Shown: positions 70-45,046 of the stretch, in pieces
Position numbering within the stretch: position 1 is the first letter of the stretch
Layout of the letters: each line of letters opens with the position of its first letter
IMG/VR virus record: IMGVR_UViG_3300032001_000013
Location: 1 to 45,046 of that record
Length of the DNA stretch: 45,046 nt
Source of the DNA: a virus
Lineage: Duplodnaviria > Caudoviricetes
Direction: 5' to 3' (one strand)
Made by a program: the position numbers and the translations under genes
Notes under the pieces: model-generated
Told to the model about the DNA's origin: nothing
The model's input: only the letters and a program-made list of their open reading frames with translations
Database searches by the model: none

Positions 70-111
70 GACAAGCGAGGGAGGCGGCCCCCGACGTTGA
101 TCGCCTCCCCC

Positions 112-550
112 GCCTGCCGAGCCGGGCATTGCCCACCCGTGCCGATCCGTGCCCTTGCCTGCGCTGCCGCGCGATGCCCCGCCGAGCTGCGCCTTGACGT
201 GCTGAGCGATTCCTGCCCCGACTTGCCGAGCCGTGCGGTGCGATCCGTGCCGACCGAACGGCGCCCAGCCGAGCCTTGGGCTGCCTCTGCCTGCCTCACA
301 ATGGCATGCCTCGCCCCGCCTTGGAACGCCTCGCCATGCTTTTCCGGCCGAGCCGGGCCGGGCTGCGCTAGGCCCTCGAAGCCACGCCTAGCCTTTCCTG
401 CCTCGCCCAGTGCCGCATCGCCGTCCACGCCGTGCAGCGGGGTGCCACGACGGCCGCACCTTGCCTTGCCCTGCATTCCGCGCAGAGCCGAGCTGTCCGG
501 ACGGTGCCGGGCCAAGCCACGCGATCCGATCCCGTGCCGGGCCCTGACGT
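112..550 (-). repeat. GGY-NN pentamer array 1 (about 7 units; putative non-contiguous guide RNA)
   Basis: 5-nt periodic GCC-NN on + strand (GGC-NN on -), units separated by GGCAGG/GGCCGTC-type spacers; promoter-like TATCTT-CC-TTGATA at 563-550 on -; hairpin at about 79-110 downstream. Confidence 0.9.
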
Positions 551-590
551 ATCAAGGAAGATAGCACATCGCAGAGCATGAGGAGGGCCG

Positions 591-1689: not shown

Positions 1690-2241
1690 TCAGCGGCGAG
1701 CTGCTTCCTGGACGCCGCCTGCTTCCTCCAGCAGCTTGATGATGGCGCTGAGCTGGTCGCGAGAAGGCTTCAGGTAGATGATGCCCTGGGCGAGCCGCAC
1801 TGGATCTTCGCCGGCGGCCCCGATCATGGTGTTGCAGTCCCGGTCGGCGTACCCGCGGATCCTCTTGGTTACGTGGTCGTGCTCGACGCACAGGGCCAGT
1901 CCGTTGGGGCCGTTGCCGCTGGGAATTTCGCCGCAGATGTCGCAGCGTCCCGAGCGCCCGGCGACTTCAGCTCGGTACTCCTCGATGGTGATGCCGTAGA
2001 GGCGCTGAAGCTGATAGCTGCGCAGGCGGTCCTTGTTGGCCTCGCGCCAGGCTTTATGCGCCTTGCTGACCTCCTCCTTGTGACCTTGCCGGTGCAGGCC
2101 TGCGTCCTCGCGTGCCTTGACCGCGCAGGTCCAGCCTTTGCTCCTGGCGGCATTCCTGTTGACCTGAACCGTTTCGCCGCAGCCCGAGCAGTAGGCCGTC
2201 CGGTTCGTTTCGTCGATCCGGCTGATGTAGTGCTGGCCCAT
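1690..2241 (-). CDS. Endonuclease VII-like (His-Me finger) nuclease, likely free-standing homing endonuclease
   Basis: YGIT..EY, CDICG, VEHDH..RIRG..CN motifs; N-terminal CxxC. Confidence 0.85.
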   Translation of the reverse strand: MGQHYISRIDETNRTAYCSGCGETVQVNRNAARSKGWTCAVKAREDAGLHRQGHKEEVSKAHKAWREANKDRLRSYQLQRLYGITIEEYRAEVAGRSGRCDICGEIPSGNGPNGLALCVEHDHVTKRIRGYADRDCNTMIGAAGEDPVRLAQGIIYLKPSRDQLSAIIKLLEEAGGVQEAARR

Positions 2242-3020: not shown

Positions 3021-4040
3021 ATGACCGAGCTTGCCACCGTTGCGAACGGGCAGCTGGCGCCGGCGGCACCGCTGGGCGGCCTGCGTCCCCGCGTTGCCTC
3101 GCGCAAGAGCGACGACTACGTTGCCCAGATCGAGGCCCGCCGGGCGCGCTCGGCTCCGCTGACCCGCGAGGCCAAGGTGCGCAAGATGGCCTTGATCCTC
3201 TCCGACGAGCTGCACGGCTTCCGCCGCCTGGGCGTCGGCATGGTGGGCCCGATCCAGCTGAAGCTGAGGTACCAGGGCATCGTCCGCAACGTGCTCGTCG
3301 AGGACCCGGTGACGCCGGGCACCCCGGTCGAGTACGACGTGTGGGACGACCTGGGCCAGGCCTACATCCTGAGCGGCACCGAGGGCGAGGTCCGGGTCAC
3401 GCCCTTTGAAGGCAAGCGCATCCCGGTGCGGTTCTTCCGCATCGCCAGCCGCCCGGCGATCCGCAAGGAGGACCTGTTCTACCTCCGGATCAACGCGGTC
3501 GAGCAGGCCCAGGACGAGACCAAGCAGGCCATCCTGAAGCAGGAGGACGCCCGCCTGCTGGTTATCCTCCAGGCCGCGGTGACGGACTACGCCACCCGCC
3601 CGGACCACGTGGTCACGCCGAACCACAACATCACCGAGGCCTCGGGCTATCTCACCCCGGGCAGCCTCTACTCGGCTGTCGCGATGACGGACCTGCACGA
3701 GCTGCCGTCCGCCCGGCTCATGATCAACCCGTTCGACTTCCGCGACATGTACCGCTGGGACATCAACCAGACGGGCTGGGCCTTCAAGGACCGCGTGGTC
3801 GCCGGCGAGACGATCACCAGCTTCGGCGAGTTCCAGATCCAGCGTTCCATCATCGTGCCGCAGGCCAAGATCTTCCTGACCCCCGAGCCCAACTTCCTCG
3901 GCGTCTTCCCGGTCCTCTACTCGCTCGACGTCGAGGAGAACCACATGGTCGAGGCCTTCTGGAAGGGCTGGGTGTTCGACGAGATGGTGGCTATGTCCAT
4001 TTTGAATCCAAGGGGAATAGCCACGATCACCAAGAGCTGA
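3021..4040 (+). CDS. Major capsid protein
   Basis: GPIQLKLRYQGIVRNVL, YRWDINQTGWAFKD, YSLDVEEN...KGWVFDE closely resemble Bxz1/cluster C MCP; strong RBS. Confidence 0.93.
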   Translation: MTELATVANGQLAPAAPLGGLRPRVASRKSDDYVAQIEARRARSAPLTREAKVRKMALILSDELHGFRRLGVGMVGPIQLKLRYQGIVRNVLVEDPVTPGTPVEYDVWDDLGQAYILSGTEGEVRVTPFEGKRIPVRFFRIASRPAIRKEDLFYLRINAVEQAQDETKQAILKQEDARLLVILQAAVTDYATRPDHVVTPNHNITEASGYLTPGSLYSAVAMTDLHELPSARLMINPFDFRDMYRWDINQTGWAFKDRVVAGETITSFGEFQIQRSIIVPQAKIFLTPEPNFLGVFPVLYSLDVEENHMVEAFWKGWVFDEMVAMSILNPRGIATITKS

Positions 4041-9799: not shown

Positions 9800-9852
9800 C
9801 GCCATGTCCGGACAGATTCCCCGTGATCTCCCCGTGACTTGACATGCAGTGC

Positions 9853-9867
9853 TAGGTTTATTGATAT
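9853..9867 (+). promoter_or_regulatory. Phage promoter motif TANNNT-N2-3-TTGAYA (representative copy)
   Basis: Copies at 4483, 5028, 5919, 6674, 7889, 8422, 9853, 11252, 15090, 16881, 24481, 32752, 34492 (+) and 563, 26910, 30033, 37478 (-). Confidence 0.8.
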
Positions 9868-9890
9868 TGACCGACCAAGCGGGAGAACGG

Positions 9891-11249
9891 ATGAGAACCG
9901 AGACGGAGATCGTTGCCGCCATGAGAGCGGCGGCGCAGCCAGGACGGCTGCGCCTGAGCAGGCAGGTCACCGCGCAGCTGCGGGGCCTGACCGATGAGCT
10001 GGCGGCAGCCCGGCCGGCCTCGGCGCAGGAGTACGCGCGGTTCCTGGCCATCGGCCGCCGCGGCATGGTCCTGCCCGAGGCGGAGCTGGCCGGCCGGATC
10101 CGGCATGCCACCATCCTGGTGACCGGCGGGACCGGCTGCATCGGCACTGAGCTGATCCGCCAGCTGGCTGAGCGGCGGTCGGGCCTGGGCTGCCTGGTCA
10201 GCGTCAGCCGCGGCATCACCAGCGGCTACCCGCGTCACCCTGAAGTCAAGTACCGGCATGCCGACATCTGCGATCGCGCTGCCATGAATGAGCTGATGGC
10301 CGAGATCAGGCCCGATCTGGTCTTCCACGTGGCGGGCCAGCGCGACCCGGGCCTGGCCGAGACCGAGGTGCACCGCACCGTGACCACCAACGTGCTCGGC
10401 ACCCGCGCCGTGCTGGTCGCGGCGGTACGGGCCGGCGTCCCCCAGGTGGTGTGCTGCTCGACCGGCAAGGCACTGCGGCCGTACTCCCCTGACGTGTACA
10501 CGGCATCCAAGCGCGCGGCCGAGTGGGTCGCCTCGGGCGTGGCCGCTGCCACCCCCATGCTGGTCTCGGCCAGCCGGTTCACGCACGTGATGGACAACTC
10601 GATCATCTGCCGGAAGCTGTGGCGCTGGGCGGAGGCCGGCCGTGCCATGCGGCTGCACGACCCCGGTATCGCGTTCTACGTCCAGTCGGCCCGGGAGTCC
10701 GCCCAGCTGCTGCTGCTGGCGGTCCTGGAGGCCCGCCGGGGCGAGTTCCGGGTCAACGCCCTGACCGATCTCGGCTGGCCGGTGAGCCTGCTGGACGTCG
10801 CGCTGGGGACGCGGGCGGCGGCAGGCCCGGAGTCGCCGGTCTACTTCAGCGGCTACGACCGCGGGTACGAGGAGACCCCGTTCCCGGGCCTGTACGACCC
10901 GCTGACCGCGGGCGGGGTGAGCCCGCTGCTGAACATGTTCGAGGCCGCCGCGAAGACGGGCTGGGCCGAGGGCCAGGCCGACACGTTCCGGCTGGGCTTC
11001 GCGCCCGACCGGCAGGCCCTCAAGCGGCTGGCCGTGCTCGCCGAGGTCTGCGGCAGCACCACGAACCCGGGGCTTGCCCGGGGCTGCCTCGATGAGCTGT
11101 CCTGGGCGCTGCTGTCCGCGGCCACGCGGGCGGTCCCGCCCGCGCTGCTGGCCCGCTCGGCCAAGATGGCCCGGCAGCAGGAGCCGCTGAGCGACGTGCA
11201 CCGCCGCGTCCTGGAGGTTATCGAGTCAGCGACCGGTGTATTCGGGTAA
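9891..11249 (+). CDS. CapD-like NAD-dependent nucleotide-sugar epimerase/dehydratase (polysaccharide biosynthesis)
   Basis: ILVTGGTGCIG Rossmann motif, VFHVA, NVLGT, STGKA, YTASK. Confidence 0.85.
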   Translation: MRTETEIVAAMRAAAQPGRLRLSRQVTAQLRGLTDELAAARPASAQEYARFLAIGRRGMVLPEAELAGRIRHATILVTGGTGCIGTELIRQLAERRSGLGCLVSVSRGITSGYPRHPEVKYRHADICDRAAMNELMAEIRPDLVFHVAGQRDPGLAETEVHRTVTTNVLGTRAVLVAAVRAGVPQVVCCSTGKALRPYSPDVYTASKRAAEWVASGVAAATPMLVSASRFTHVMDNSIICRKLWRWAEAGRAMRLHDPGIAFYVQSARESAQLLLLAVLEARRGEFRVNALTDLGWPVSLLDVALGTRAAAGPESPVYFSGYDRGYEETPFPGLYDPLTAGGVSPLLNMFEAAAKTGWAEGQADTFRLGFAPDRQALKRLAVLAEVCGSTTNPGLARGCLDELSWALLSAATRAVPPALLARSAKMARQQEPLSDVHRRVLEVIESATGVFG

Positions 11250-11290
11250 GCTAGGTTCATTGATATTCATTCACCCGAGGGGGACTACTC

Positions 11291-12634
11291 ATGACTGCCG
11301 CGCCGGGGCGACCCTGGGCTGAGGGCGAGCCTGCCCACCAGTTCCAGGTACCCGCGTACCAGCCGCCCGCCCATCTCCTGGGCCCGTTCCGCGTTCCCGA
11401 CGACACCAGCACCCAGGTCATGCCCGCCTGGCGGCCCGAGGAGACCGTCACGGCGCCGCTGCCGCTGGGCCAGCCCGAGCCGGTCCCGGCGCCGCGGCGC
11501 AACCGGATCATCGCCCTGGTGCCCGTGCACAACGGGGAAGCGGACCTGGCCCCGGCCATCGAGGCGCTGCTGGCCCAGACCCGCCCGCTGGACGAGATCA
11601 TCATCATCTCCGACAACTCGACAGACGGCACCGTGGCGGTCGCGAGCCGCTACCCGGTGACGGTGATCGAGTCGGCAGGCAACAGGTACCGCAAGTCCGG
11701 CGCGCTGAACCAGGCCTGGCGCAAGTACGCCCAGGACGCCGACTACGTGGTGTGCATCGACGATGACACCCGGCTGCCGCCGTTTGCGGTGGAGCACTTC
11801 GAGGCCGAGATGACCGAGGATCCCGGGGTAGGTGGCATCTCCTGCCAGGTGGTGATGCGGGGCAGCAGCATCCTGAGCCGGATCCAGCGGGCCGAGTTCG
11901 CGCAGAGCACGGTGCTGAGCCGGAACCGGGGCTGGGTCCGGGTCATCTCGGGCACCGGCTGCATCTTCCGCAACGAGGCGCTGCGCGAGGCCGCCCTGCT
12001 CCCGGGCCAGGAGGGCCCGTGGACCTACCGCAGCGTGGTCGAGGACTACCACCTGACCTTCCAGCTGCGCAAGCTGGGCTGGCTGTGCATCATGAGCAAG
12101 GACGTGTGGTGCGACACCGGCAGCATGCCCTCGGTGAAGGCGCTGTGGCACCAGCGGGTCAAGTGGCAGTCCGGCACGATCGGCGACCTGATCAACTTCG
12201 GCTTCAACCGGATGAACTGGCGCGAGTGGATGCAGCAGTTCTACGGCCTGATCTGCGTGGCCTTCTGGATCCTGTGGATCTCGCTGAACGGGACCGCCTG
12301 GGCCCTGGGCGGGCTGCACCCGAACATCTGGTGGGTCATCTTCCCGGCGATCTTCGCGGGGACCGAGTGCTTCTACGCCTGGCACATCCACGGCCGCGAC
12401 TGGAAGGACATGCTGCTGGCCGTCTCCATGGTCAAGATGATGATCTACACCTTCCTGTGCATGGGCTGGAACCTGGCCAGCTGGTGGATCATCCTGCGCG
12501 GCAAGCAGAAGGACCTGTGGGCTGCCCAGTACGTCGCCGACGGGACAGACAAGGTACTAGGGGAGGGAATGAGCGATGCCGGACCTGCCAGCGAAGAGGA
12601 CCGTCGTCCCGCGCCGCAGGCGCTATGCCGTTAG
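11291..12634 (+). CDS. Processive GT2 glycosyltransferase (cellulose/PNAG synthase-like)
   Basis: PVHN, DNSTD, KSGALN, DDD, VED, QRVKW (QxxRW-like) and C-terminal TM helices. Confidence 0.9.
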   Translation: MTAAPGRPWAEGEPAHQFQVPAYQPPAHLLGPFRVPDDTSTQVMPAWRPEETVTAPLPLGQPEPVPAPRRNRIIALVPVHNGEADLAPAIEALLAQTRPLDEIIIISDNSTDGTVAVASRYPVTVIESAGNRYRKSGALNQAWRKYAQDADYVVCIDDDTRLPPFAVEHFEAEMTEDPGVGGISCQVVMRGSSILSRIQRAEFAQSTVLSRNRGWVRVISGTGCIFRNEALREAALLPGQEGPWTYRSVVEDYHLTFQLRKLGWLCIMSKDVWCDTGSMPSVKALWHQRVKWQSGTIGDLINFGFNRMNWREWMQQFYGLICVAFWILWISLNGTAWALGGLHPNIWWVIFPAIFAGTECFYAWHIHGRDWKDMLLAVSMVKMMIYTFLCMGWNLASWWIILRGKQKDLWAAQYVADGTDKVLGEGMSDAGPASEEDRRPAPQALCR

Positions 12635-19132: not shown

Positions 19133-19147
19133 TTACTATGGTTCCTA

Positions 19148-19273
19148 GCCAAGGTGAGGCTAGGCATCGCGTGTCCTGGCACGGATGGGCATGGCGGGGC
19201 CCGGCAGGAGTGGCTCGGCTTGGGGTGGCTCGTCTAGGAGTTGCCCGGCGTGGCTGGGCAGGTACGGCAAGGA
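19148..19273 (+). repeat. GGY-NN pentamer array 2 (2 units)
   Basis: Strict 5-nt register with GGCAGG separators; units match the flanking genes when decoded. Confidence 0.9.
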
Positions 19274-32029: not shown

Positions 32030-32742
32030 TGCCCCCGTCCGTCGCCACCGTCTCCGGCGAGACCGCTGAGTTCGTCATCAGCGGCGACCCCGACCGGATG
32101 ATCATGCTGGTGCCCAGGCTGAACGGCAACCGGGCCCGGAACCTGGCCAACGCCGCGGTGCGCGAGGCCCGCAGGATCATGCCCAAGCTGACCGGCCGGG
32201 CCGCCCAGCGCCTGGTGCCGGTCTACGGCTACGGGTTCTTCGGCATCCACTGGGCCGACGCGTACGTGTACTTCCAGGAGAAGGGCATCCGGCCGTTCAC
32301 GATGACCCACCTGGCCGGCAAGACGATCCCGATGTGGGTCGACGACCCGACCGGCACCGAGAAGCAGCGCAACCCGAGGGCGCAGACCCGCACCACGATC
32401 TCGGGCAAGCCGCAGGTGCTGATCTTCCGCCGGGCCGCGCAGATCGGGGCGACCAGGACGATCCGGACCAAGGTCGCCGGGCAGTGGGAGGTCAGGACGG
32501 TGCCCGCGTCCTACCCGGGCGCCCCGGGCCGGATCGGCCGACGCGAGGCCGCCATCCCCTGGACGACCGCGGGCCGCCAGGGCGGCCAGATCGCCCAGGC
32601 CAACATCGGCGTCCGCTGGCGCCACCCCGGCCTGGCCCCGCGATTGTTCATGAACCGGGCGATCACCTTGGCCGCTCAGCAGGGCGGCATCCTGCCGACG
32701 CGGATCTACGTCGCTGACAGATTCTGGAGATCGCATTTCTGA
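32029..32742 (+). CDS. Putative neck/tail-completion protein
   Basis: MPKLTG, Q..G..PFTM, WRHPG..PR.FM motifs typical of gp10-like neck proteins. Confidence 0.65.
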   Translation: MPPSVATVSGETAEFVISGDPDRMIMLVPRLNGNRARNLANAAVREARRIMPKLTGRAAQRLVPVYGYGFFGIHWADAYVYFQEKGIRPFTMTHLAGKTIPMWVDDPTGTEKQRNPRAQTRTTISGKPQVLIFRRAAQIGATRTIRTKVAGQWEVRTVPASYPGAPGRIGRREAAIPWTTAGRQGGQIAQANIGVRWRHPGLAPRLFMNRAITLAAQQGGILPTRIYVADRFWRSHF

Positions 32743-32766
32743 TTTTCCTGATAAGGTTCATTGATA

Positions 32767-33770
32767 GGCCTGGCCGGGCCAGGCGAAGCCTTGACAGCGC
32801 GTCAAGGCATCGCGTGGCAGGAAAGGCTAGGCGTGGTGCCGATCGCCCGGCGTCGCTCTGCTAGGCAGTCGAGGCGCAGCCCGGCGCGGATGGCCGGGCC
32901 GGGTAGCGCCAGGCAGAGCAGGGCAGGGCAGGATGGGCCCCGCTCGGATGGCTGGGCATGGCAGCGCAGGAAAGGAATGTCTTGGCCTGGCCAGGCGAGG
33001 CCCGGCGGGGCAGTCATGGCTCGTCTAGGCATTGCGGGCCAGGGCGAGGCGAGGCAGGCGATTGCTCGGCGGGCCGTGGCGCCGCAGGGCAGGTCTAGGC
33101 AGGCTAATGGTTCAGTGAACCATTAAGGCAGCCAAGGCATGCCGGGGCGAGGCTCCGCGGGGCATCGCCGGGTATCGCAAGGCCGTCATCGCGGGGCACC
33201 GCCCGTCCTGGATGGGCATGGCGCCGCGCGGCGCTGCCAGGCAGGATTGGCGAGGCTTGGCCCAGGCATTGCCGGTCGTGGCACCGCCCGGCAAGGCAGG
33301 AGAGTCTGGGCTAGGCGGGGCATCGCTCAGCGCGGCGAGGCACAGTGCCGCGAGGCCGGGCGGGGCTAGGCAGTCCAGGCATCGCTCGTCGCGGCCAGGC
33401 ATGGCCCGGCGAGGCGCAGCGAGGCAGTCCCGGTATCGCTCGGATGGCTTGGCCAGGCAAGGCCAGGCAGGGCCGTCGAGGCGTGGCCTTGCGCCGCCTG
33501 GACCGCAACGCATCGCAAGGCTGGGCAAGGCAGGTGCAGCCTGGCAAGGCAGTGCCTGGCGGCGCAACGCGCAGCCTGGCCAGGCGAGGCAGTCAGGTCG
33601 TGGCGAGCCTTGGCCCGGCAGTGCCCGGCCCGGCAGCGCCCGGCACGGCATGGCAGGAGATGCTAGTCAGGGCCAGGCTCGGCTCGGATCGCGCGGCTCG
33701 GCGCGGCAGGAGCAGCTTGGCATGGCGGGGAGAGGCTGAGCCCGGCTAGCGGGGCAAGGCGCGGCAGGTA
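32767..33770 (+). repeat. GGY-NN pentamer array 3 (about 18 units)
   Basis: Starts right after promoter TAAGGT-TCA-TTGATA (32752); internal palindrome at 33105-33125. Confidence 0.92.
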
Positions 33771-33789
33771 CGGGGCCCCGGGAAGCAGT

Positions 33790-34494
33790 GTGACTACTCC
33801 TCAGCCGTTCGTCCCGGCGTATCCGGCCGGCTTCTTGCGCGTCATCAAGGCCGGCTCGGTCGACGCGCTGAACCAGGCCTTCGCGATCGCCTACCCCGAG
33901 CAGGATGCGGCCGGCGGGATCCAGGCGCCGTACATCAGCATCGACTACCCGGTGAGCCAGGGCGCCTACCCGGGCATCTGGGTGGACTTCGAGGTGGCCA
34001 TGCTGCGCACCGCGGGCATCGACCACATCGAGATGCTGGATGACGGCACGGTGCTGGCCCGCTGGCGGTTCCAGGGCTACGCGGTGTTCACCACCGTGGC
34101 GCTGAACAGCAACGAGTGCGACGGGATCTACGACCAGCTGGTGGCGCTGACCGCGTTCGCCGCTCAGTCCGAGGTGCCCTCGGTCTTCCGCGATGTCATC
34201 GACTCCAACGGCCTGGTGAGCACCACCTGGAGCTACGACACGGTGGAGGCCCGCGGCCAGTCCGCGGCGCCGGGCACGCCCTGGGGCACCACCGAGATCA
34301 TCTACGAGCGCGGCATCGCGCTGAAGGTGATCGGCGAGTTCGTCACCAACCCGGCCTCGGCCGTCTACGAGCTGGTGCCGCTGAGCAAGATCATCATCAC
34401 CGGCCAGATGCAGATCGACGACGTGAACGCCGGCGACCCGTTCATCCTGACCATCCCGCCGGAGACCCCGCCGTTCACCCCGCTTCCCGGCTAA
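33790..34494 (+). CDS. Putative tail terminator protein
   Basis: SIDYP...YPGIWV motif; position before sheath. Confidence 0.65.
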   Translation: MTTPQPFVPAYPAGFLRVIKAGSVDALNQAFAIAYPEQDAAGGIQAPYISIDYPVSQGAYPGIWVDFEVAMLRTAGIDHIEMLDDGTVLARWRFQGYAVFTTVALNSNECDGIYDQLVALTAFAAQSEVPSVFRDVIDSNGLVSTTWSYDTVEARGQSAAPGTPWGTTEIIYERGIALKVIGEFVTNPASAVYELVPLSKIIITGQMQIDDVNAGDPFILTIPPETPPFTPLPG

Positions 34495-34505
34495 GGTTCT
34501 TTGAT

Positions 34506-35324
34506 AGCATGGTGGTCCTGGGCTGGGCGTCGGTGGCACATCACGTCCAGGCCGGGCGTGGCCGTCCAGGCGCGGATAGCCAGGACGGCGCGTCCAGGCG
34601 CTGCCGCGCTCGGCAGTCCTGGTGTCGCGAGGCGGGGCAGTGCGTCGCTGGTCGCGGCAAGGCAAGGCCCGGCTCGGCCGTCGCGGTTAGTCTGCGCGTG
34701 TCGGTGCTGGGCCCGGAGCGCTAGGCTTCGCTGGGCCGTCGGCGCATCGCTATGCGTGGCCCGGCTTGGCGTGGCAAGGCCTCGCATCGCAAGGCAAGGC
34801 CGTCGAGGCTTAGCTGGTCTGGGCACGGGATGCCAGGCACGGCGGGGCGCGGCCGTCCAGGCTGGTCTAGGACATCCCGTCGAGGACTGGCGTGGCCGTC
34901 AAGGCCTGGCGGGTCCGGGCCCGGTACCGCATGGCACAACTCGGCGCGGCCGGAGATGCTGGGCTAGGCGAGGCATCGCGGGGCGCGGCGAGGCTAGGCC
35001 GTCTGCGCGGGGCTCGGCAAGGGTCGCTCCGCTCGGCAGGGCACGGCGAGGCCGGGTTGGCAAGGGTCGCCCGGGTGGCGTTGCATCGCTTGGCCGTCCT
35101 GGTATAGCCCGGCGTCGCATTGCGAAGCGGCGCGGGGCATGGCCTGGCTGTCGAGGCTGAGCTTGGCGCTGCGTCGCTTGGCGCTGCGAGGCTGGGCGCG
35201 GCCGTCCTGGCCCGGCCCGGAGGCGCAACGCGGGTCCAGGCGAGGCAGGGCTAGGCCGTCTAGGCACGTCCCGGCGGGTCGGGGCTGAGCTAGTCGCCGC
35301 CTGGCAAGGTGTGGTGAGGCAGGA
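34506..35324 (+). repeat. GGY-NN pentamer array 4 (about 15 units)
   Basis: Follows promoter TAAGGT-TCT-TTGATA (34492); GGCCGTC separators. Confidence 0.92.
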
Positions 35325-35377
35325 GGTTCTCCGGCCCGGGAAGACGTGAGGATGTCTTCCCGGGAGGAGAGCCCACG

Positions 35378-36931
35378 GTGACGGTTCCGACTTTTTCGTC
35401 TTATCAGCCTCCTGGCGTCTACGTCTCCGACGTCACCGGGCCCATCGTCACCACGACCGGGGTCTTCCCGCAGATCCTGACGCTGGTCGGGCCGGGGCTC
35501 GGCTACCGCACCGCGGTCCAGACCTTCCAGATCTTCGCGGGCACGGGCGCCATCCTGAACTTCACCGGGGTCTTCACCACCGCCCAGGCCGGGCCCCCGG
35601 CGATCGCCGCGCCCGTGATGACGGTCACCGGCTCCAGCACCATCCTGGCCCAGGGCACCGACTACAGCTTCACCGTGACCCCGGACCCCTCGGGCAACGC
35701 CGCGCTGGCGGTCACCTCGGTCTTCCGGGTCGGCACCTCGACCAGCATCGCCGACGGCGCCCAGGTGACGATCACCTACAACTACGCCGACGTCACGTAC
35801 TACCAGCCGCAGCTGTTCACCAACTTCCCCGCGGTCACCAACGCCTACGGCCAGCCCCTGGTGGCCGCCGCGCCGACCCAGGCCAACGTCAGCCAGGTGG
35901 CCAACCCGCTGAGCTACGCCGCGCAGACCGCATTCGGCGCCGGGGCCAACCAGGTCATCGCGTGCGCCTGCAACCCGGCGGACGGCACCCTGGAGCAGCA
36001 GCTGCTCGCCGCGTACACCAAGCTGGCTGCCGTCTACGACTCGACCCTGGTGGTCCCGGTCTTCCCCGACTACCTGGGCGGCTTCGCGGGCGGCTCCGGC
36101 GTGTCCCAGTACGCCCTGACGCTGGCCACCGACCTGGACGGCGCGATGCAGGGCGCCAGCGTCAACGGCTACCCTCGGATCGGCTTCTTCGGGCTGCCGG
36201 TGGACTACTCCGAGTCGGCGCTGCCGGTGCCGAGCTTCTCCGCCTCGATCGCCGACAAGCGGCTGGTGCTGGCCTACCCCAAGGCCCTCCAGGCCTACAA
36301 CCCGCTGACCCGGCAGACGTTCAGCGCCTCGGGCTGCTACCTGGCGGTCGCGCTGGCCGCGGTGCTGTCGGCGCTGCCGGTGAACACCGGGCTGACCGGC
36401 CAGGCGGTGCCCGGCTTCGCGGGGCTGACCGCGGCCGAGCTTCAGGCGATGACCCCGGCGTTCATGAACAGCCTGGCCCAGGCCGGGACCACGGTGGTCT
36501 ACCAGAGCCGCAACGGCGGGCTGACCTGCCGGCATGGCCTGACCACCAACATGAGCGCGCTGAACACCCGGGAGATCTCACTGGTCCGCCAGGCCGATGC
36601 CCTGCTGGTGTCCCTCCAGGCCGGGATGGAGAACTCCGGGCTGATCGGCACGCCGATCACCGCGAACACGGTGGCCACGGTGCAGGGCGCGATCGTCTCG
36701 ATCCTCCAGCAGGACATCGCCCAGGGCATCATCGCCAGCTACACGAACCTGGTGGTCGCCCAGCAGCAGTACCCGGGCGGCGACCCGACGGTGATCACCG
36801 CGACCTTCTCCTATGTCCCGAGCGTCCCGCTGAACTACATCGAGGTCACGTTCAGCATCGACCTCAGTGCTGGCCTGGTGTCCCAGCAGTCACAGCAGAA
36901 CGCGGCAGCTCCCACCGTCTCCGTGACCTGA
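35378..36931 (+). CDS. Contractile tail sheath protein
   Basis: Y..PGVYV N-terminus; RHGLTT, REISLVR..D, P..PLNYI.V.F C-terminus. Confidence 0.92.
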   Translation: MTVPTFSSYQPPGVYVSDVTGPIVTTTGVFPQILTLVGPGLGYRTAVQTFQIFAGTGAILNFTGVFTTAQAGPPAIAAPVMTVTGSSTILAQGTDYSFTVTPDPSGNAALAVTSVFRVGTSTSIADGAQVTITYNYADVTYYQPQLFTNFPAVTNAYGQPLVAAAPTQANVSQVANPLSYAAQTAFGAGANQVIACACNPADGTLEQQLLAAYTKLAAVYDSTLVVPVFPDYLGGFAGGSGVSQYALTLATDLDGAMQGASVNGYPRIGFFGLPVDYSESALPVPSFSASIADKRLVLAYPKALQAYNPLTRQTFSASGCYLAVALAAVLSALPVNTGLTGQAVPGFAGLTAAELQAMTPAFMNSLAQAGTTVVYQSRNGGLTCRHGLTTNMSALNTREISLVRQADALLVSLQAGMENSGLIGTPITANTVATVQGAIVSILQQDIAQGIIASYTNLVVAQQQYPGGDPTVITATFSYVPSVPLNYIEVTFSIDLSAGLVSQQSQQNAAAPTVSVT

Positions 36932-36933
36932 TT

Positions 36934-37458
36934 GCCTGCCCTACCCTGCACAGCTAAGCGCTCCAAGCCAAGACGAGCGCAGACGGCCATGCCCTGCCAA
37001 GCGTTCCGTGCCCGGCCTCGCCTTGACGGCCATGCCCAGCTCCGCGAGCCCGCGCCTAGCCAGGCCTCTCCGGCCGAGCGCTCCACGCCAAGCCCTGCCA
37101 AGCACGGCCTAGTCGTGCCATGCCGCTCCGGCCTCGCCACGCTCAGCGACGCCAGTCCTCGCCGAGCCAAGCGACTCCTGCCGAGCCGAGCGCGGACATC
37201 CCGGGCCGCGCCAATCCCGGCCAGGCCGCGACTGCCCGGCCCTGCCTAGCCAGGACTAGCCGCCCTGGCCCCGCGGTGCGTTTCCGGCCCCGCCAAGCCC
37301 CGCCGTGCCTAGCCACGCGACGCCCAGCAATGCGCTGACGGCCGTGCCGGGCACAGCGGCCCATGCCGGTCCAAGCGCAGCAACACCTGGACGGCCTCGC
37401 CTCAGCGTGCCCTGGCAAGCCATCTAAGCCAGGCCCGGATGTGCGGCGCCAAGACTGC
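36934..37458 (-). repeat. GGY-NN pentamer array 5 (about 10 units)
   Basis: GCC-NN register on +; promoter TAGAAT-CA-TTGACA at 37478-37465 on -. Confidence 0.92.
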
Positions 37459-37531
37459 TCTGGCTGTCAATGATTCTAGTGCATCTTCGGCAGCCCCGGG
37501 AAGAAGCGACGGATAGACCCGGGAGGCTGCG

Positions 37532-38065
37532 GTGCCCAATACTCACGTCCGTGTAGTCGGCTCCGGCTATACCGTTTTGAGCTACAACAACAAGCCCATC
37601 GCTTTCTGCGAGGGCTGGGAAGACTCCGGCCAGCGCGCCTTCTCCGATGCCGGGCAGCCGTTCCAGTTCATCCAGCCGATCGGGTACAGCCACCCCATCG
37701 AGATCGCCACGTCCCGCGTGCTGGCCGGCGGCACCCTGATGCTGACCATCCGCGAGCTGTGGAACCAGCCGGTCTGGTGGCAGCTGGCCGGCCTGGCGGG
37801 CACCTGGTCCATCGTCGACATCTTCGCCGCGCTGGCCGCCAACCCGAACTACGTGACCGCCTCGCTGATCATCAAGCCGCCGGGCACCGCGCATCAGCCG
37901 GGCAGCTGGCGCGGCAAGCTGTACCAGAACGTGGTGGTGGTGGACATCAATGATGGCGACACGGTGACCGTCGGGGCGCTGGCCGTGACCAAGGGCATCA
38001 CCGCGGCCTACACGCACTACATCCCGCTGAACTCCAACCAGTACAGCCCGCTGACCGGCCAGTAG
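37532..38065 (+). CDS. Tail tube protein
   Basis: Follows sheath; 177 aa; RVVGSG, HPIEI.T, GTL.L...ELWN. Confidence 0.8.
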   Translation: MPNTHVRVVGSGYTVLSYNNKPIAFCEGWEDSGQRAFSDAGQPFQFIQPIGYSHPIEIATSRVLAGGTLMLTIRELWNQPVWWQLAGLAGTWSIVDIFAALAANPNYVTASLIIKPPGTAHQPGSWRGKLYQNVVVVDINDGDTVTVGALAVTKGITAAYTHYIPLNSNQYSPLTGQ

Positions 38066-41258: not shown

Positions 41259-41261
41259 TCT

Positions 41262-41665
41262 GCCTGCCTTGCCCTGCCACGCCTATCTATGCTGCTCCGA
41301 GCCCTTGCCTGCCTTGCCCCGCCTTGCCGTGCCAGGCTTCGCCGTCCGAGCCGCTCCTGCCTAGCCTCGCCATACTGCGCCTGTCCTCGCTATGCTGCGA
41401 CTCGCCGCGCCTCGCCAGGACTGCCCTGCCGCACCGTGCCTCGCCCAGCTGTGATCGCCCTGCCCAGCAGCGCCTTGACTGCCTTGCCCGGCATTGCCCA
41501 GCGGCCCTTGCCGGGACAGGCCCGGACATGCCAGGACTGCCTCGCCTCGCCCCGCCCTGCCCAGCCAAGACTGGCCATGCCGTCCCTTGACGGCCGCGCC
41601 CTGCTGAGCCTTGCGGAGCCGGGCCCCGCCTACCCGGGCCCTGCCGTGCCTTCGTCTCCTGCCTG
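41262..41665 (-). repeat. GGY-NN pentamer array 6 (about 7 units)
   Basis: GCC-NN register on + with GACTGCC separators; downstream of - gene 41808..42347. Confidence 0.88.
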
Positions 41666-41797
41666 GCCGCTGCCGGGCAGCGGCATCGCGAGCCAGCGCT
41701 TCCTGTCCGGCTTGCCGTGGCACTGGCTGCACCCGCAGTGGGTCTCATGCGTGCCCGGGGCCGAGCAGTGCGGCCCGCAGTCCGGTGTGCTGCCCAT
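41630..41797 (-). CDS. Possible small Cys/His-rich protein, 55 aa
   Basis: MGSTPDCGPHC...HCGCSQCHG; runs into array 6. Confidence 0.4.
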   Translation of the reverse strand: MGSTPDCGPHCSAPGTHETHCGCSQCHGKPDRKRWLAMPLPGSGQAGDEGTAGPG

Positions 41798-42435: not shown

Positions 42436-45046
42436 GTGGCTGGTCGCCTAGACACTGAGCCCGGCGGCGTGACTGACGCCTTCCAGGTGCTGGTCGACAA
42501 CATCCCGGCCATGGTGGAGGTGATGAAGAAGCAGTCTGATGACATCGCGAAGATGCTCGACCTCCAGGAGCGGTACCAGGTGACCGGCCCCGGCGGCGGC
42601 GGCGAGGCGGCGGGCCACATCGCCCTGGCCCAGCAGTACCAGCCCCGCATGAGGGAGGACCTGCTCCGCCAGCTGACCCGGCAGGGCGCGATCCCGGCCG
42701 ACGCCACCATGGGCATCACCAAGATGACCGGCATGGGCGCGACGACCTCGCTCCAGAACCTCCAGGCCTACGCGGCTCAGCGGCTCGGCCAGCTCATCGG
42801 CCGCCGGTTCGGCCCGGACCCGGACTGGAAGCTGTACCCCGAGCACGAGGACCTGGTGAGGGAGGCCGAGGCGCAGCGGCAGCAGCACGGCGGCGCGCAG
42901 CCGGGCGGGTCCCAGGCCACCCCGGGCGGCGACCTGCGCCCGCCGGCCCAGGCGATCATGGACCGCTGGGCCCCGGCGGGCCCCGGGGGCGGCGGCGCCA
43001 TGATCCTGACCCCGGAAGGCCAGCAGGCCAGGGACCAGAAAACCACCCTGAGGCTGCTCCAGGAGACCGCTGCCGCCACGCAGAGTACCGCCAGGTCCGC
43101 GGAGGGGACCGAGGAGGAGCTGGCCGCCGGAGGCCGTCTCAGCGCCACGGCCCAGGCGGCTGCCGGGGCGGCCGGGGCGAGGATGACTCCTGAAAGGGAG
43201 CACGTCCCGCTGCCTGCCGACCTGGTGGGCCAGACGACGCCCGCGCCACCGGGAGCAGCCCCCTCCCCATCGGGCGGTCCCCAGGCCGGAGGCGGGGCTC
43301 CCGGCGGTCCCGGTCCTGGCGGTCCAGGAGGCGGGGCAGGCACCGGGGGCCCGCCTGGCGCTGGCGGCGGCGTCACGCCTCAGCAGCGGGCCAGCTGGGC
43401 CCAGCAGTTCGGCGCCCGGGTGGCGATGACCGGCGGCACCCCCAGGGGCATCGCCGAGATGCTCCGCAAGATCCCCGGGGTCGGCCTGGTCGAGGACATC
43501 GCCGGGGCCTATCAGGCGCAGCGCGAGGCCGGCCGGGCCTACCAGGAGGTCGAGGGCGGCACCAACCTCGGCGCGCAGACTGAGCGGGCGCACCGGACGG
43601 CCTACGAGATCTCGATGTTCGGCCGGGTCCCCGAGGGCGTGGCCGCGGATATGTTCAACCAGGTTACTGCCCTCGGCTTCAGCCAGCGGGCGGTCGGCCA
43701 GGGCCAGCAGGCCCAGAACCGGCAGAGCGCGCTGAACTTCCTGTACCACCAGTACAACGCCACCGGCATGGACATTGAGCAGGGCGCGCAGATCCTGGCC
43801 ACCGCCACCCAGAATGCCACGGTCAGCCTGTCCACGGTCTCCGACGCGATCAGCTCGCTGTCTGACGTCGCGGGCAAGGCCGGCGTCAACGCCGAGGAGG
43901 CCAGGAACAACTTCAACGCCTACTTCAACACGGTCCTCCAGGGCACCGGGGCCGGCCCCCAGGCGGCCACCGCGGCCGGGGCCATCGCCGCCCAGCAGGC
44001 GGGCATGGGCCAGGCGTTTGCCGGGGCGAACTTCGCCGGGGAGGCCAGCACGCGGATGATGTACATGGTGTCCGGCATGGCCGGGATCAGCCCGAACCGG
44101 GCCCAGTACCTCCAGCGGACCAACATCGCCGAGTACAACCGGCTGGTGACCGGGGTCCAGGGCCAGTTCCTCCAGAACCTGCCCGGCCTCCAGGCGCACC
44201 TGGCCGCGCTCCGGCAGATGATTCAGGCGGCAGGCGGCGGCGCCCAGGTCAAGGCCCAGCCCGCGATCGCGGCGCAGATCGCCCAGCAGTTCCTCGACCA
44301 GTTCCAGGCCCAGGACCCCAACCTGAACATGGACGTCTGGGCCCAGGTCGTCACCGCCACGATGGGCGTCCAGGGGATCAACGCGGGCAACGTCATGCAG
44401 TGGGTGGTCGACCAGGTGGCCGGGCAGACCCTGGCCGCGGCGACTCCGGGCGGAGGTACCCCTGGCGGGGCCCCGGGCGGCGGCGGGGGCGCCGTATCGG
44501 CGGGCGGCGCCGCGGCTGCGGTCAGAGCGGGCACGGCAGCCAGCGGCCAGTACGGGCTCGCGACCGGCACGCCGACGGTGCCGGGCACCGGGGCGGCCGG
44601 GGCCAGGGTCGGCCCGCAGCAGGTCGGCCAGACCTGGCAGCAGCAGCTGCTGGGCGGCGCCATCCCCAACGTGGCCAAGACCTACCTGGGGATGGAGCAG
44701 AAGACCGGCAAGCGCAGCCCGGTGCTGGAGGCGATCCTCCAGAACGCCAAGCCGGGCACCTCGGTTGCCGTCAGGACCGCCTCGGGCACCCGCGTGATGG
44801 ACATCAACGACGCGATCAGGTACTACCCGGCCGAAGTCGAGGCCGGCCAGGTCGAGTTCTACAACGCCGCCGGGCAGAACGTCGGCGCCAGCACCCTGAC
44901 CGGCGGCCACACCGACCCGACCGCCGCGGCTGCCGCTGCCGCCGAGGCCTCGCAGAAGGGCCCGGGAGCCCAGGCCGGGGTCACCATCTCGCAGTGGCAG
45001 AAGAAGACGGGCCGCACCGGCACCGCCCAGGGCGGGGACGCCACGC
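42436..45046 (+). CDS. Tape measure protein (5' part, runs off window)
   Basis: GTG with GAGAGGA RBS; open frame to window end; A/G/Q-rich; follows tail chaperone. Confidence 0.85.
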   Translation, partial: MAGRLDTEPGGVTDAFQVLVDNIPAMVEVMKKQSDDIAKMLDLQERYQVTGPGGGGEAAGHIALAQQYQPRMREDLLRQLTRQGAIPADATMGITKMTGMGATTSLQNLQAYAAQRLGQLIGRRFGPDPDWKLYPEHEDLVREAEAQRQQHGGAQPGGSQATPGGDLRPPAQAIMDRWAPAGPGGGGAMILTPEGQQARDQKTTLRLLQETAAATQSTARSAEGTEEELAAGGRLSATAQAAAGAAGARMTPEREHVPLPADLVGQTTPAPPGAAPSPSGGPQAGGGAPGGPGPGGPGGGAGTGGPPGAGGGVTPQQRASWAQQFGARVAMTGGTPRGIAEMLRKIPGVGLVEDIAGAYQAQREAGRAYQEVEGGTNLGAQTERAHRTAYEISMFGRVPEGVAADMFNQVTALGFSQRAVGQGQQAQNRQSALNFLYHQYNATGMDIEQGAQILATATQNATVSLSTVSDAISSLSDVAGKAGVNAEEARNNFNAYFNTVLQGTGAGPQAATAAGAIAAQQAGMGQAFAGANFAGEASTRMMYMVSGMAGISPNRAQYLQRTNIAEYNRLVTGVQGQFLQNLPGLQAHLAALRQMIQAAGGGAQVKAQPAIAAQIAQQFLDQFQAQDPNLNMDVWAQVVTATMGVQGINAGNVMQWVVDQVAGQTLAAATPGGGTPGGAPGGGGGAVSAGGAAAAVRAGTAASGQYGLATGTPTVPGTGAAGARVGPQQVGQTWQQQLLGGAIPNVAKTYLGMEQKTGKRSPVLEAILQNAKPGTSVAVRTASGTRVMDINDAIRYYPAEVEAGQVEFYNAAGQNVGASTLTGGHTDPTAAAAAAAEASQKGPGAQAGVTISQWQKKTGRTGTAQGGDAT

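Follow-up and report, generated by a model that had tools for sequence, protein, structure and literature searches.

VIPR, only months old as a described system, is a phage-encoded silencing system whose guide RNAs (vrRNAs) are built of GGY/NN repeats that read their targets with a 1-nt skip at the wobble position and silence on either strand, as set out in the available text of 10.64898/2026.04.26.720920 (PMC13142463). According to the same text, the guides target competing phages, targets are called with an 80% cut-off, and no self match reached that cut-off in the clades tested; the legend of its Fig. S18 describes staggered arrays in which units overlap by 1 nt. For the SUSP1 family, the text of 10.64898/2026.10.15.759431 describes solo vrRNAs, reports that vrRNA-targeting guides score self below rivals, and states that escape requires changes at amino-acid-determining positions; sheath targets and serine codon-family swaps are absent from its main text ('sheath' 0 occurrences, 'serine' 1, unrelated). 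In the type II structures, subunits resolve from the RNA 3' end and the filament assembles 3' to 5' (10.64898/2026.04.26.720927), and the main text of that preprint treats neither mismatches nor a seed. In the available texts of the four relevant VIPR preprints, the fourth being 10.64898/2026.10.21.760802, the terms 'serine codon' and 'actinobacteriophage' do not occur.

Pentamer arrays and the unit preceding the tail sheath gene

The window, by which the whole analysed stretch of 45,046 nucleotides is meant, is a 45-kb linear virus record of a soil phage, with a GC content of 70%, that CheckV rates as 28% complete. Besides a major head protein (3021-4040) and a likely tube protein, it encodes further genes of the kind found in large actinobacterial myophages. 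Its tail sheath matches, in tblastn searches, annotated sheaths of Mycobacterium and Gordonia myophages; annotated sheath matches occur in 224 phage records, 209 of which are Mycobacterium phages, at identities of about 26-30%.

Six pentamer arrays, all intergenic, are scattered among the structural genes (Table 1). They display the pentamer grammar of VIPR, a GGY-type triplet plus a variable dinucleotide (NN) repeated 9-16 times per guide, with 490 scaffold triplets made up of GGC (59%), CGC (11%), GTC (6%), AGC (6%), TGC (5%) and GGT (3%), among others. Unit length, joined across internal 4-nt steps, peaks at 10-12 NN (36 of 75 units), and a 4-nt step follows GGCAG or GGCCG at 47 of the 53 junctions listed for units of at least six pentamers. 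Consecutive guides overlap by 1 nt, as in the staggered form known from the published figure legend. Type II is characterized by a structured 3' pseudoknot tail on every guide and a vipr-vap1 operon, and the present arrays depart from it in that their units abut and carry no tail. Additionally, an AT-rich motif heads arrays 1, 3, 4 and 5 and occurs in 14 copies in the window, against a Markov null with a mean of 0.06 and a maximum of 2 in 100 runs; it is a putative phage promoter.

Table 1. Arrays, motif, hairpin and sheath features of the window.
Feature	Position	Strand	Remarks
Array 1	110..563	-	One unit agrees at 19/20 NN bases with one found in the Vipr-bearing record G002
Array 2	19140..19265	+	Two units
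Array 3	32752..33767	+	Same grammar; own promoter-like motif
Array 4	34501..35322	+	Staggered GGY/NN-type pentamers; 4-nt step after GGCAG or GGCCG (1-nt overlap)
Array 5	36935..37478	-	Same grammar; sits between sheath and tube genes, opposite strand
Array 6	41260..41715	-	Pentamer array parsed from sequence
AT-rich promoter-like motif, TA-N3-T-N2-4-TTGA[T/C]A	34492..34506	+	Head of array 4; putative promoter
Terminal unit of array 4 (predicted vrRNA guide)	35258..35322	+	Junction step, 12 variable NN, closing GGCAG pentamer
Strong hairpin	35325..35373	+	Pairs the ribosome-binding site (RBS) 35363-35371; z -6.2, 0/200 shuffles
Tail sheath gene	35378..36931	+	517 aa; phrog_2839, E 2e-46
Own near-target, sheath codons 4-15, PTFSSYQPPGVY	35387..35422	+	20/24 read bases, 1-nt skip

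The last unit of array 4 can be parsed into a 4-nt junction step and 12 pentamers, with variable dinucleotides at 35261-35317 that read, reverse-complemented, tc ac tt ag gc ta ca cc cc gg gt ta. This parse reproduces exactly the decoding given in the first-pass annotation, whose rule is the published VIPR 1-nt-skip rule and whose proposed target, a tail-sheath homolog, is borne out by a unit that points at the sheath N-terminus. The own copy of the target lies 65 bases downstream of the guide, and the skipped base falls on the third codon position. The claimed 20/24 match holds up against order-shuffled guides, none of 1500 reaching that score (maximum 19, twice); the next best site in the window scores 16/24. 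For the window's 10 contiguous guides of at least 11 NN, none of 150 shuffled sets reaches 83%. Skips of 0, 1 and 2 nt give best scores of 17, 22 and 17 of 24, respectively, over the window and related loci (1.95 Mb).

All four self mismatches oppose the guide's five 3' dinucleotides, and the seven 5' dinucleotides are fully matched. Specifically, the guide carries AG against the own TCG at Ser7 (two mismatches), GC, encoding Ala, against TCT at codon 8 (one), and TC against CCG at codon 4 (one). The last dinucleotide of the guide, opposite codon 4, is probably not read, because Pro4 is kept in 114 of 117 aligned sheath proteins; on the 11-NN core, self scores 19/22. The first-pass annotation had attributed the self difference to a Ser codon-family swap, which is correct for Ser7 but accounts for only two of the four mismatches. 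Its AT-rich patch is likewise real but not special: third positions at the site are A/T in 6 of 12 cases, tied second to sixth of 42 genes (maximum 7), and these are the skipped bases, so that the patch adds nothing to the match.

As that annotation also held, this unit provides the best in-window validation of the decoding rule, being the sole clear match in the window. When 70 contiguous units from three phages were scored on 1.95 Mb, four exceeded the best of 12 shuffles, two of them by one base, which is about the chance level; only two sheath guides, those of the window and of the related phage L011, beat their shuffles by at least two bases. Among 54 units interrupted by a 4-nt step, two scored one base above the best of their 10 shuffles, and 161 units compared with the window and records G001, G002 and G003 gave no further trusted match. 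The two sheath guides aside, peptide-level self-matches elsewhere in the phages' own genes are weak. A proposed correspondence between the first scaffold base and the skipped base held at two non-G positions of the window guide and was dropped, as it failed in L011 and contradicts an AGY codon.

Related sheath genes, a counterpart guide and the effector

Arrays at the same positions are found in two other phages only: L011, whose sheath is 73% identical to that of the window, and phage B (L005-L010 and L028), with 75% identity. The three fall within a 16-protein clade (support 0.99) whose DNA sampling is thin, at three phages. In L011, the last unit before the sheath gene decodes to F-S-S-Y-N-P-P-G-V-Y-V, the phage's own peptide, and its match is codon-phased like that of the window. 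The L011 guide agrees with its own gene at 22/22 on the peptide level, where any codon of the residue is allowed, and at 18/22 on DNA; its four mismatches are AG versus TC at both serines. None of 2000 shuffles reaches 18, and 14 of 40 other genes beat self, the best with 20/22.

Over the ten core dinucleotides that they have in common, the guides of the window and of L011 differ at only 3 of 20 bases (17/20 identical), although the sheaths diverge by about 27%. The two guides are offset by one unit and have three of nine scaffold triplets in common, and for this reason common descent and repeated acquisition are indistinguishable. Across phages, seven guide pairs share at least 80% of their NN bases, versus 0 in 60 shuffles, scaffold triplets are equal in 26 of 64, and one unit is identical at 18/18 in all three phages. 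As in VIPR, the information resides in the NN and not in the scaffold, and the guides of the clade look constrained.

Phage B carries arrays and has no sheath guide at the corresponding spot. Its codons 7-8 are AGC GCT, which the window guide reads, and its score against that guide is 20/24. The phage B allele and the window allele both occur in sequencing run X4, which may be a source of the window DNA; this co-occurrence shows a shared soil, not a shared host. The contigs of four runs, a material that drops rare variants, contained no window-type allele with AGY codons, and a look for RNA runs carrying the locus found none. When the comparison is confined to the three phages with arrays, no allele outscores self for either guide (20/20/18 and 18/18/17). 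At residue 10 each guide encodes the amino acid of its owner; within the clade this residue is Q in 1 of 15 proteins and N in 2, compared with 73 and 7, respectively, of 102 proteins outside it. Residue 10 ranks as the eighth most variable of 511 columns in the clade and seventeenth by excess over the outgroup, a pattern that is no more than suggestive of escape-driven diversity.

For the wider comparison, 90 sheath loci were reduced to 60 groups besides the window's own, of which 41 groups plus the window were anchored and 19 dropped. Scored against the window guide, 40 genes (window and L011 set aside) include three that match better than self (L014 and L017 with 22/24, L023 with 21/24), eight that equal it and 29 that are worse. 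Self ties fourth of 41 genes, and the better relatives lead by 1-2 bases. The first-pass annotation had proposed a comparison with relatives and had regarded a lack of any relative better than self as contrary to its reading; since three of the 40 do match better, that contrary outcome did not arise. Among 120 proteins, P0087 (PTFSAYQPPGVY) alone could reach up to 23/24, as judged from the protein, and a quick tree places it as sister to L017, in a group with L017 and L013. A perfect target, searched as a 22-base pattern, gave 0 matches in viral_contigs and metagenome_contigs. A looser pattern covering both guides gave one match in viral_contigs, from the same record as L064 (20/24), and 0 in genome_contigs, where searches for sheath relatives found none. 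Viral_contigs yielded 0 further copies of the guide, and searches for the targets of two guides that phages have in common gave 0 matches each.

Between array 4 and the sheath start lies a hairpin built from an inverted second copy (35335-35343) of a leader motif. The leader motif precedes 25 of 30 sheath genes, the inverted copy is confined to the three array-bearing phages, and the stems of the window and L011 hairpins show paired changes. The hairpin follows only the last unit of array 4 and no other unit, and it probably ends or insulates the array transcript. In phage T4, early-transcript hairpins mask late-gene ribosome-binding sites. The present hairpin resembles these in covering the RBS on a transcript begun upstream, with the conserved leader motif in its 5' arm; unlike in T4, the upstream transcript here would be a guide array, and the promoter roles are putative. 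A search of 32700-37600 against Rfam returned two miRNA hairpin matches, both below threshold and regarded as chance.

Two protein searches and two HMMs detected no vipr gene in the window (best window match E 2; record 28% complete), and none was found in 21.5 kb of L011 or in 15.6 kb of L028. Vipr genes do stand beside the same array grammar in other phage records. G001, whose head protein is 88% identical, has one vipr, encoding a protein that matches SUSP1 Vipr (PDB 36pp, E 4.6e-40), and dispersed guides, and G003 (head 74%, sheath 32%) carries a Vipr-like gene (36pp, E 8.4e-6) ahead of a staggered array. In G002, vipr (E 1.9e-52 to an HMM built without it) sits beside one of several dispersed arrays. 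This record shares no protein with the window at E 1e-8, but it has the window's type of junction, its promoter-like motif in five copies and one of its guides at 19/20 NN identity. Of 38 viral loci found through the junction pattern, 14 have a Vipr match within 6 kb (E<1e-5). The terminal unit thus reads like a vrRNA, and membership in VIPR is likely, although the effector itself was not seen.

Readings of the guide and of its serine mismatches

The terminal unit is rather probably a guide RNA against the sheath gene of related rivals, one that owes its persistence to the mismatches between its 3' half and the linked own allele. The array would be transcribed from the AT-rich motif at 34492 and processed into single guides, each bound by Vipr, which is predicted to be encoded in the unassembled part of the genome. 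The loaded complex would sit on the first codons of a rival sheath gene and repress it, silencing being modelled on the published SUSP1 system, and the four 3'-half mismatches would spare the own copy. Such 3' mismatches may protect self because Vipr subunits resolve from the RNA 3' end, the site of all self mismatches, in keeping with the 3'-to-5' assembly described for the type II structures. The guide-less phage B, which carries the AGC GCT codons read by the guide and co-occurs in run X4, argues for this anti-kin role, as do the match with its shuffle controls, the relatives that outscore self, the apparent constraint on guides of the clade and the competing phages targeted by published guides. 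Against it stand the absence of a perfect target from the contig searches, the lead of just 1-2 bases in the only three relatives that beat self, the equal scores of phage B and self, the rank of self as top or tied among the three array-bearing phages, the window's lack of vipr, and a self-match of 83%, above the 80% target cut-off given in the text of 10.64898/2026.04.26.720920. Moreover, the reading of the owner's residue 10 fits self or very close kin better than distant rivals, and this tracking of residue 10, together with the position beside the gene, is what the anti-kin reading explains least. Close-kin targeting combined with linkage of guide and allele would account for both.

The serine mismatches were viewed against the background of ordinary sheath divergence. 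In 35 sheath genes, most of the 64 Ser columns show codon-family swaps, some of them between genes more than 85% identical, and relatives without a nearby array have such swaps all along the sheath gene. Among relatives the two families are equally frequent at codon 7 (4:4) and at codon 8 (10:10). In favour of an escape, 5 of 12 close pairs differ at codon 8, through roughly two events, and codons 7 and 8 are tied third and fifth of 64 for swaps, with 0.33 and 0.29 per Ser-bearing row (median about 0.17), but the untargeted columns 119, 97, 261 and 393 rank beside them. Deliberate recoding of the own gene is therefore not established, Ser swaps being common in array-less relatives, and active recoding is unsupported in that the swap rates at codons 7-8, although high, are matched by untargeted columns. 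The four TCN codons are in themselves unremarkable, because TCN makes up 60% of the Ser codons in either genome (384 of 645 in window genes, 171 of 287 in L011 genes), and TCG at codon 7, being common to the window and L011, is perhaps ancestral.

The window and L011 together hold three double mismatches, all serine-preserving, which would seldom be expected from random decay; because the guide AG keeps serine, another allele looks like the template of the mismatch. A survivor effect is the best reading of the Ser AG/TC difference: a guide against a conserved essential motif would be kept only where the own allele mismatches it, the codon-family switch being the main silent change at read positions. 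The data fit such an effect as well as recoding, and active recoding may have occurred but is not required. A more ambitious and doubtful extension would make the locus a linked kin-exclusion cassette, with VIPR aimed at the start of an essential gene that the phage also owns and the Ser codon families serving as a self/non-self mark. In such a cassette, the short distance of 65 bases would keep recombination from parting the guide from the immune allele, and the guide would be updated with the own peptide (Q in the window, N in L011). If true, this would be a silent way out of a code that has been described as permitting none, kept up in two phages with 73% sheath identity.

Self-regulation is a tentative and rather unlikely alternative to the anti-rival guide. 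The putative array promoter points into the sheath, and the last guide would be a deliberately weakened self-target that parks Vipr as a roadblock and, with the RBS-masking hairpin, blocks premature sheath expression. In two phages the guide is the last unit before its own match, bears its owner's residue 10 and matches self at 83% and 82%, respectively, and no other unit clearly matches the structural region of relatives. Additionally, the RBS-masking hairpin is confined to the three array-bearing phages of 30, which suggests that read-through needs control. However, phage B has arrays and the hairpin with no such guide, some relatives match better than self, and the double mismatches preserve serine, as though another allele had been their source. 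Moreover, the complexes described in the text of 10.64898/2026.04.26.720920 silence strongly on either strand, so that self-targeting would endanger an essential late gene.

Less probable still is a relic: a guide that once fitted the phage's own lineage or a rival since lost, was left behind as the own gene drifted or escaped, and today would be inactive and in decay. The contig searches found no perfect target, the guide's 3'-most dinucleotide mismatches nearly all sheaths, Ser swaps arise frequently through ordinary divergence, and phage B lacks the unit, all of which would suit decay. Yet the scaffold of the unit is intact, the window and L011 guides agree at 17/20 despite their divergent sheaths, other guides of the clade are conserved at NN positions, and the clade is thinly sampled at the DNA level (three phages).

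It is very improbable that the phage is devoid of its own Vipr and that its arrays redirect the Vipr of a co-infecting phage in the manner of the SUSP1-family solo vrRNAs, so that the sheath guide would direct the effector of a rival against that rival or against some third phage. Six arrays in 45 kb with no vipr, its equal lack in the L011 and L028 stretches, and the solo vrRNAs described in the text of 10.64898/2026.10.15.759431 would agree with such orphan guides. The record is only 28% complete, however, and G002, which shares junctions, motif and a 19/20 guide, has vipr beside one of several dispersed arrays, as G001 too combines one vipr with dispersed guides. Finally, a chance match between a GC-rich repeat and the neighbouring gene, for which about 55 units of at least 8 NN were available to try, is opposed by 0/1500 shuffles, 0/150 shuffled guide sets and the correct codon phase, and is already refuted by the L011 counterpart, whose same-position unit matches the same site (0/2000 shuffles).

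Comparison with described systems

The locus forms a small natural test set at one 36-base site: two guides at homologous positions, the own alleles of both (20/24 and 18/22), a relative that co-occurs, has no guide and carries the codons read by the guide, and relatives that match better than self. It bears on whether the skip code, as claimed, blocks synonymous escape, and on VIPR tool design, and it places VIPR arrays throughout the virion module of large Bxz1-like actinophages. The unit is a real feature of a known system, in a layout that is undescribed in the preprint texts, the supplements of which may already list this clade or such self-matches.

The likeness to VIPR as described in the text of 10.64898/2026.04.26.720920 comprises the pentamers, the units of 10-12 NN with 1-nt overlap, the wobble skip, the phage-encoded arrays and the targets in related phages. 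Unlike in that text, the arrays here are six and dispersed, four of them with an AT-rich promoter-like motif, on a record without vipr; no pseudoknot tail is seen, and the scaffold is looser (GGC 59%). The self-match reaches 83% in contrast to none of at least 80% there, two phages here having such a self-match, and the target is a structural gene homologous to the adjacent gene.

The SUSP1-family guides, as far as the text of 10.64898/2026.10.15.759431 describes them, likewise lie away from vipr, target early codons and, where they are directed at vrRNAs, give self the lower score. Their targets, unlike the sheath gene here, are vipr, satellites, vrRNAs and REP elements in enterobacterial phages, and the Ser AG/TC difference, being silent, departs from the escape rule stated there. 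The cryo-EM system is of type II with a 3' pseudoknot, as described in the text of 10.64898/2026.04.26.720927, and its 3'-to-5' assembly may not extend to staggered arrays. Its 11-12 subunits on 11-12 repeats nevertheless suit the unit length of the present arrays, and the proteins beside related arrays match SUSP1 Vipr (PDB 36pp) with E values of 4.6e-40 and 8.4e-6.

Guide conservation and internal scaffold steps

A guide of nine variable dinucleotides (NNs) is common to three phages, namely the window and the related phage loci L011 and L028, with 18/18 NN bases identical and the scaffold differing. A search of viral_contigs for the target of this guide returned none. An internal 4-nt step, often GG-NN, is present in 24 window units of 9–15 NN, distributed across all six arrays. 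One such unit is 19/20 identical to a unit of G002, a related viral record, that carries a full pentamer at this position; a scaffold step shorter by one base therefore seems to be tolerated within a guide.

Repeated elements around arrays and structural genes

An AT-rich, promoter-like motif occurs in 14 copies in the window, lying upstream of four arrays and of many small genes. It is present too in L011, L028 and G002, and is absent from the vipr-bearing records G001 and G003. A second motif, CCGGGAAG, lies upstream of several structural genes in the window and precedes related sheath genes in 25/30 cases, making it a candidate late promoter or leader element. Additionally, an identical 19-base palindrome occurs twice, within array 3 and just beyond the end of array 1, and was not found in L011 or L028; it may be an operator or a terminator.

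Coordinates of guides, motifs, genes and related loci
Feature	Location	Strand
Shared 9-NN guide	window 34953-35001; L011 8090; L028 1336	
19-base palindrome, array 3 copy	window 33106	+
19-base palindrome, array 1 copy	window 69	-
AT-rich motif	window 5028, 5919, 7889, 8422, 9853, 11252, 15090, 16881, 24481, 32752, 34492	+
AT-rich motif	window 563, 26910, 37478	-
CCGGGAAG motif	window 928, 26944, 33778, 35336, 37496	+
Epimerase/dehydratase and glycosyltransferase genes	window 9849-12634	
Endonuclease VII-type gene	window 1690-2241	-
Long open frame	window 42436-45046	
G001 L075 locus	L075:2172-2750	
G001 arrays	56.0, 71.3, 90.3, 101.6-102.2, 106.7-107.9, 142.7-144.4, 149.2 kb	

Other window genes

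Nucleotide-sugar epimerase/dehydratase and family-2 glycosyltransferase genes, possibly serving virion or DNA glycosylation, lie between the head and tail modules, and a free-standing endonuclease VII-type gene precedes the genes for head decoration and the capsid. The long open frame, which continues past the contig end and matches G001 weakly, probably encodes the tape measure; array 6 lies ~700 bases upstream of it on the opposite strand.

VIPR layouts in other records

At L124/L125, two loci of the record G004, two adjacent Vipr-like reading frames sit beside staggered arrays, with weak HMM matches. The complete Bxz1-like relative G001 carries one vipr gene and single guides scattered through its genome. 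These guides are not staggered; a conserved spacer motif lies between them, along with hairpins. This arrangement is a second VIPR layout within the same phage group as the window.
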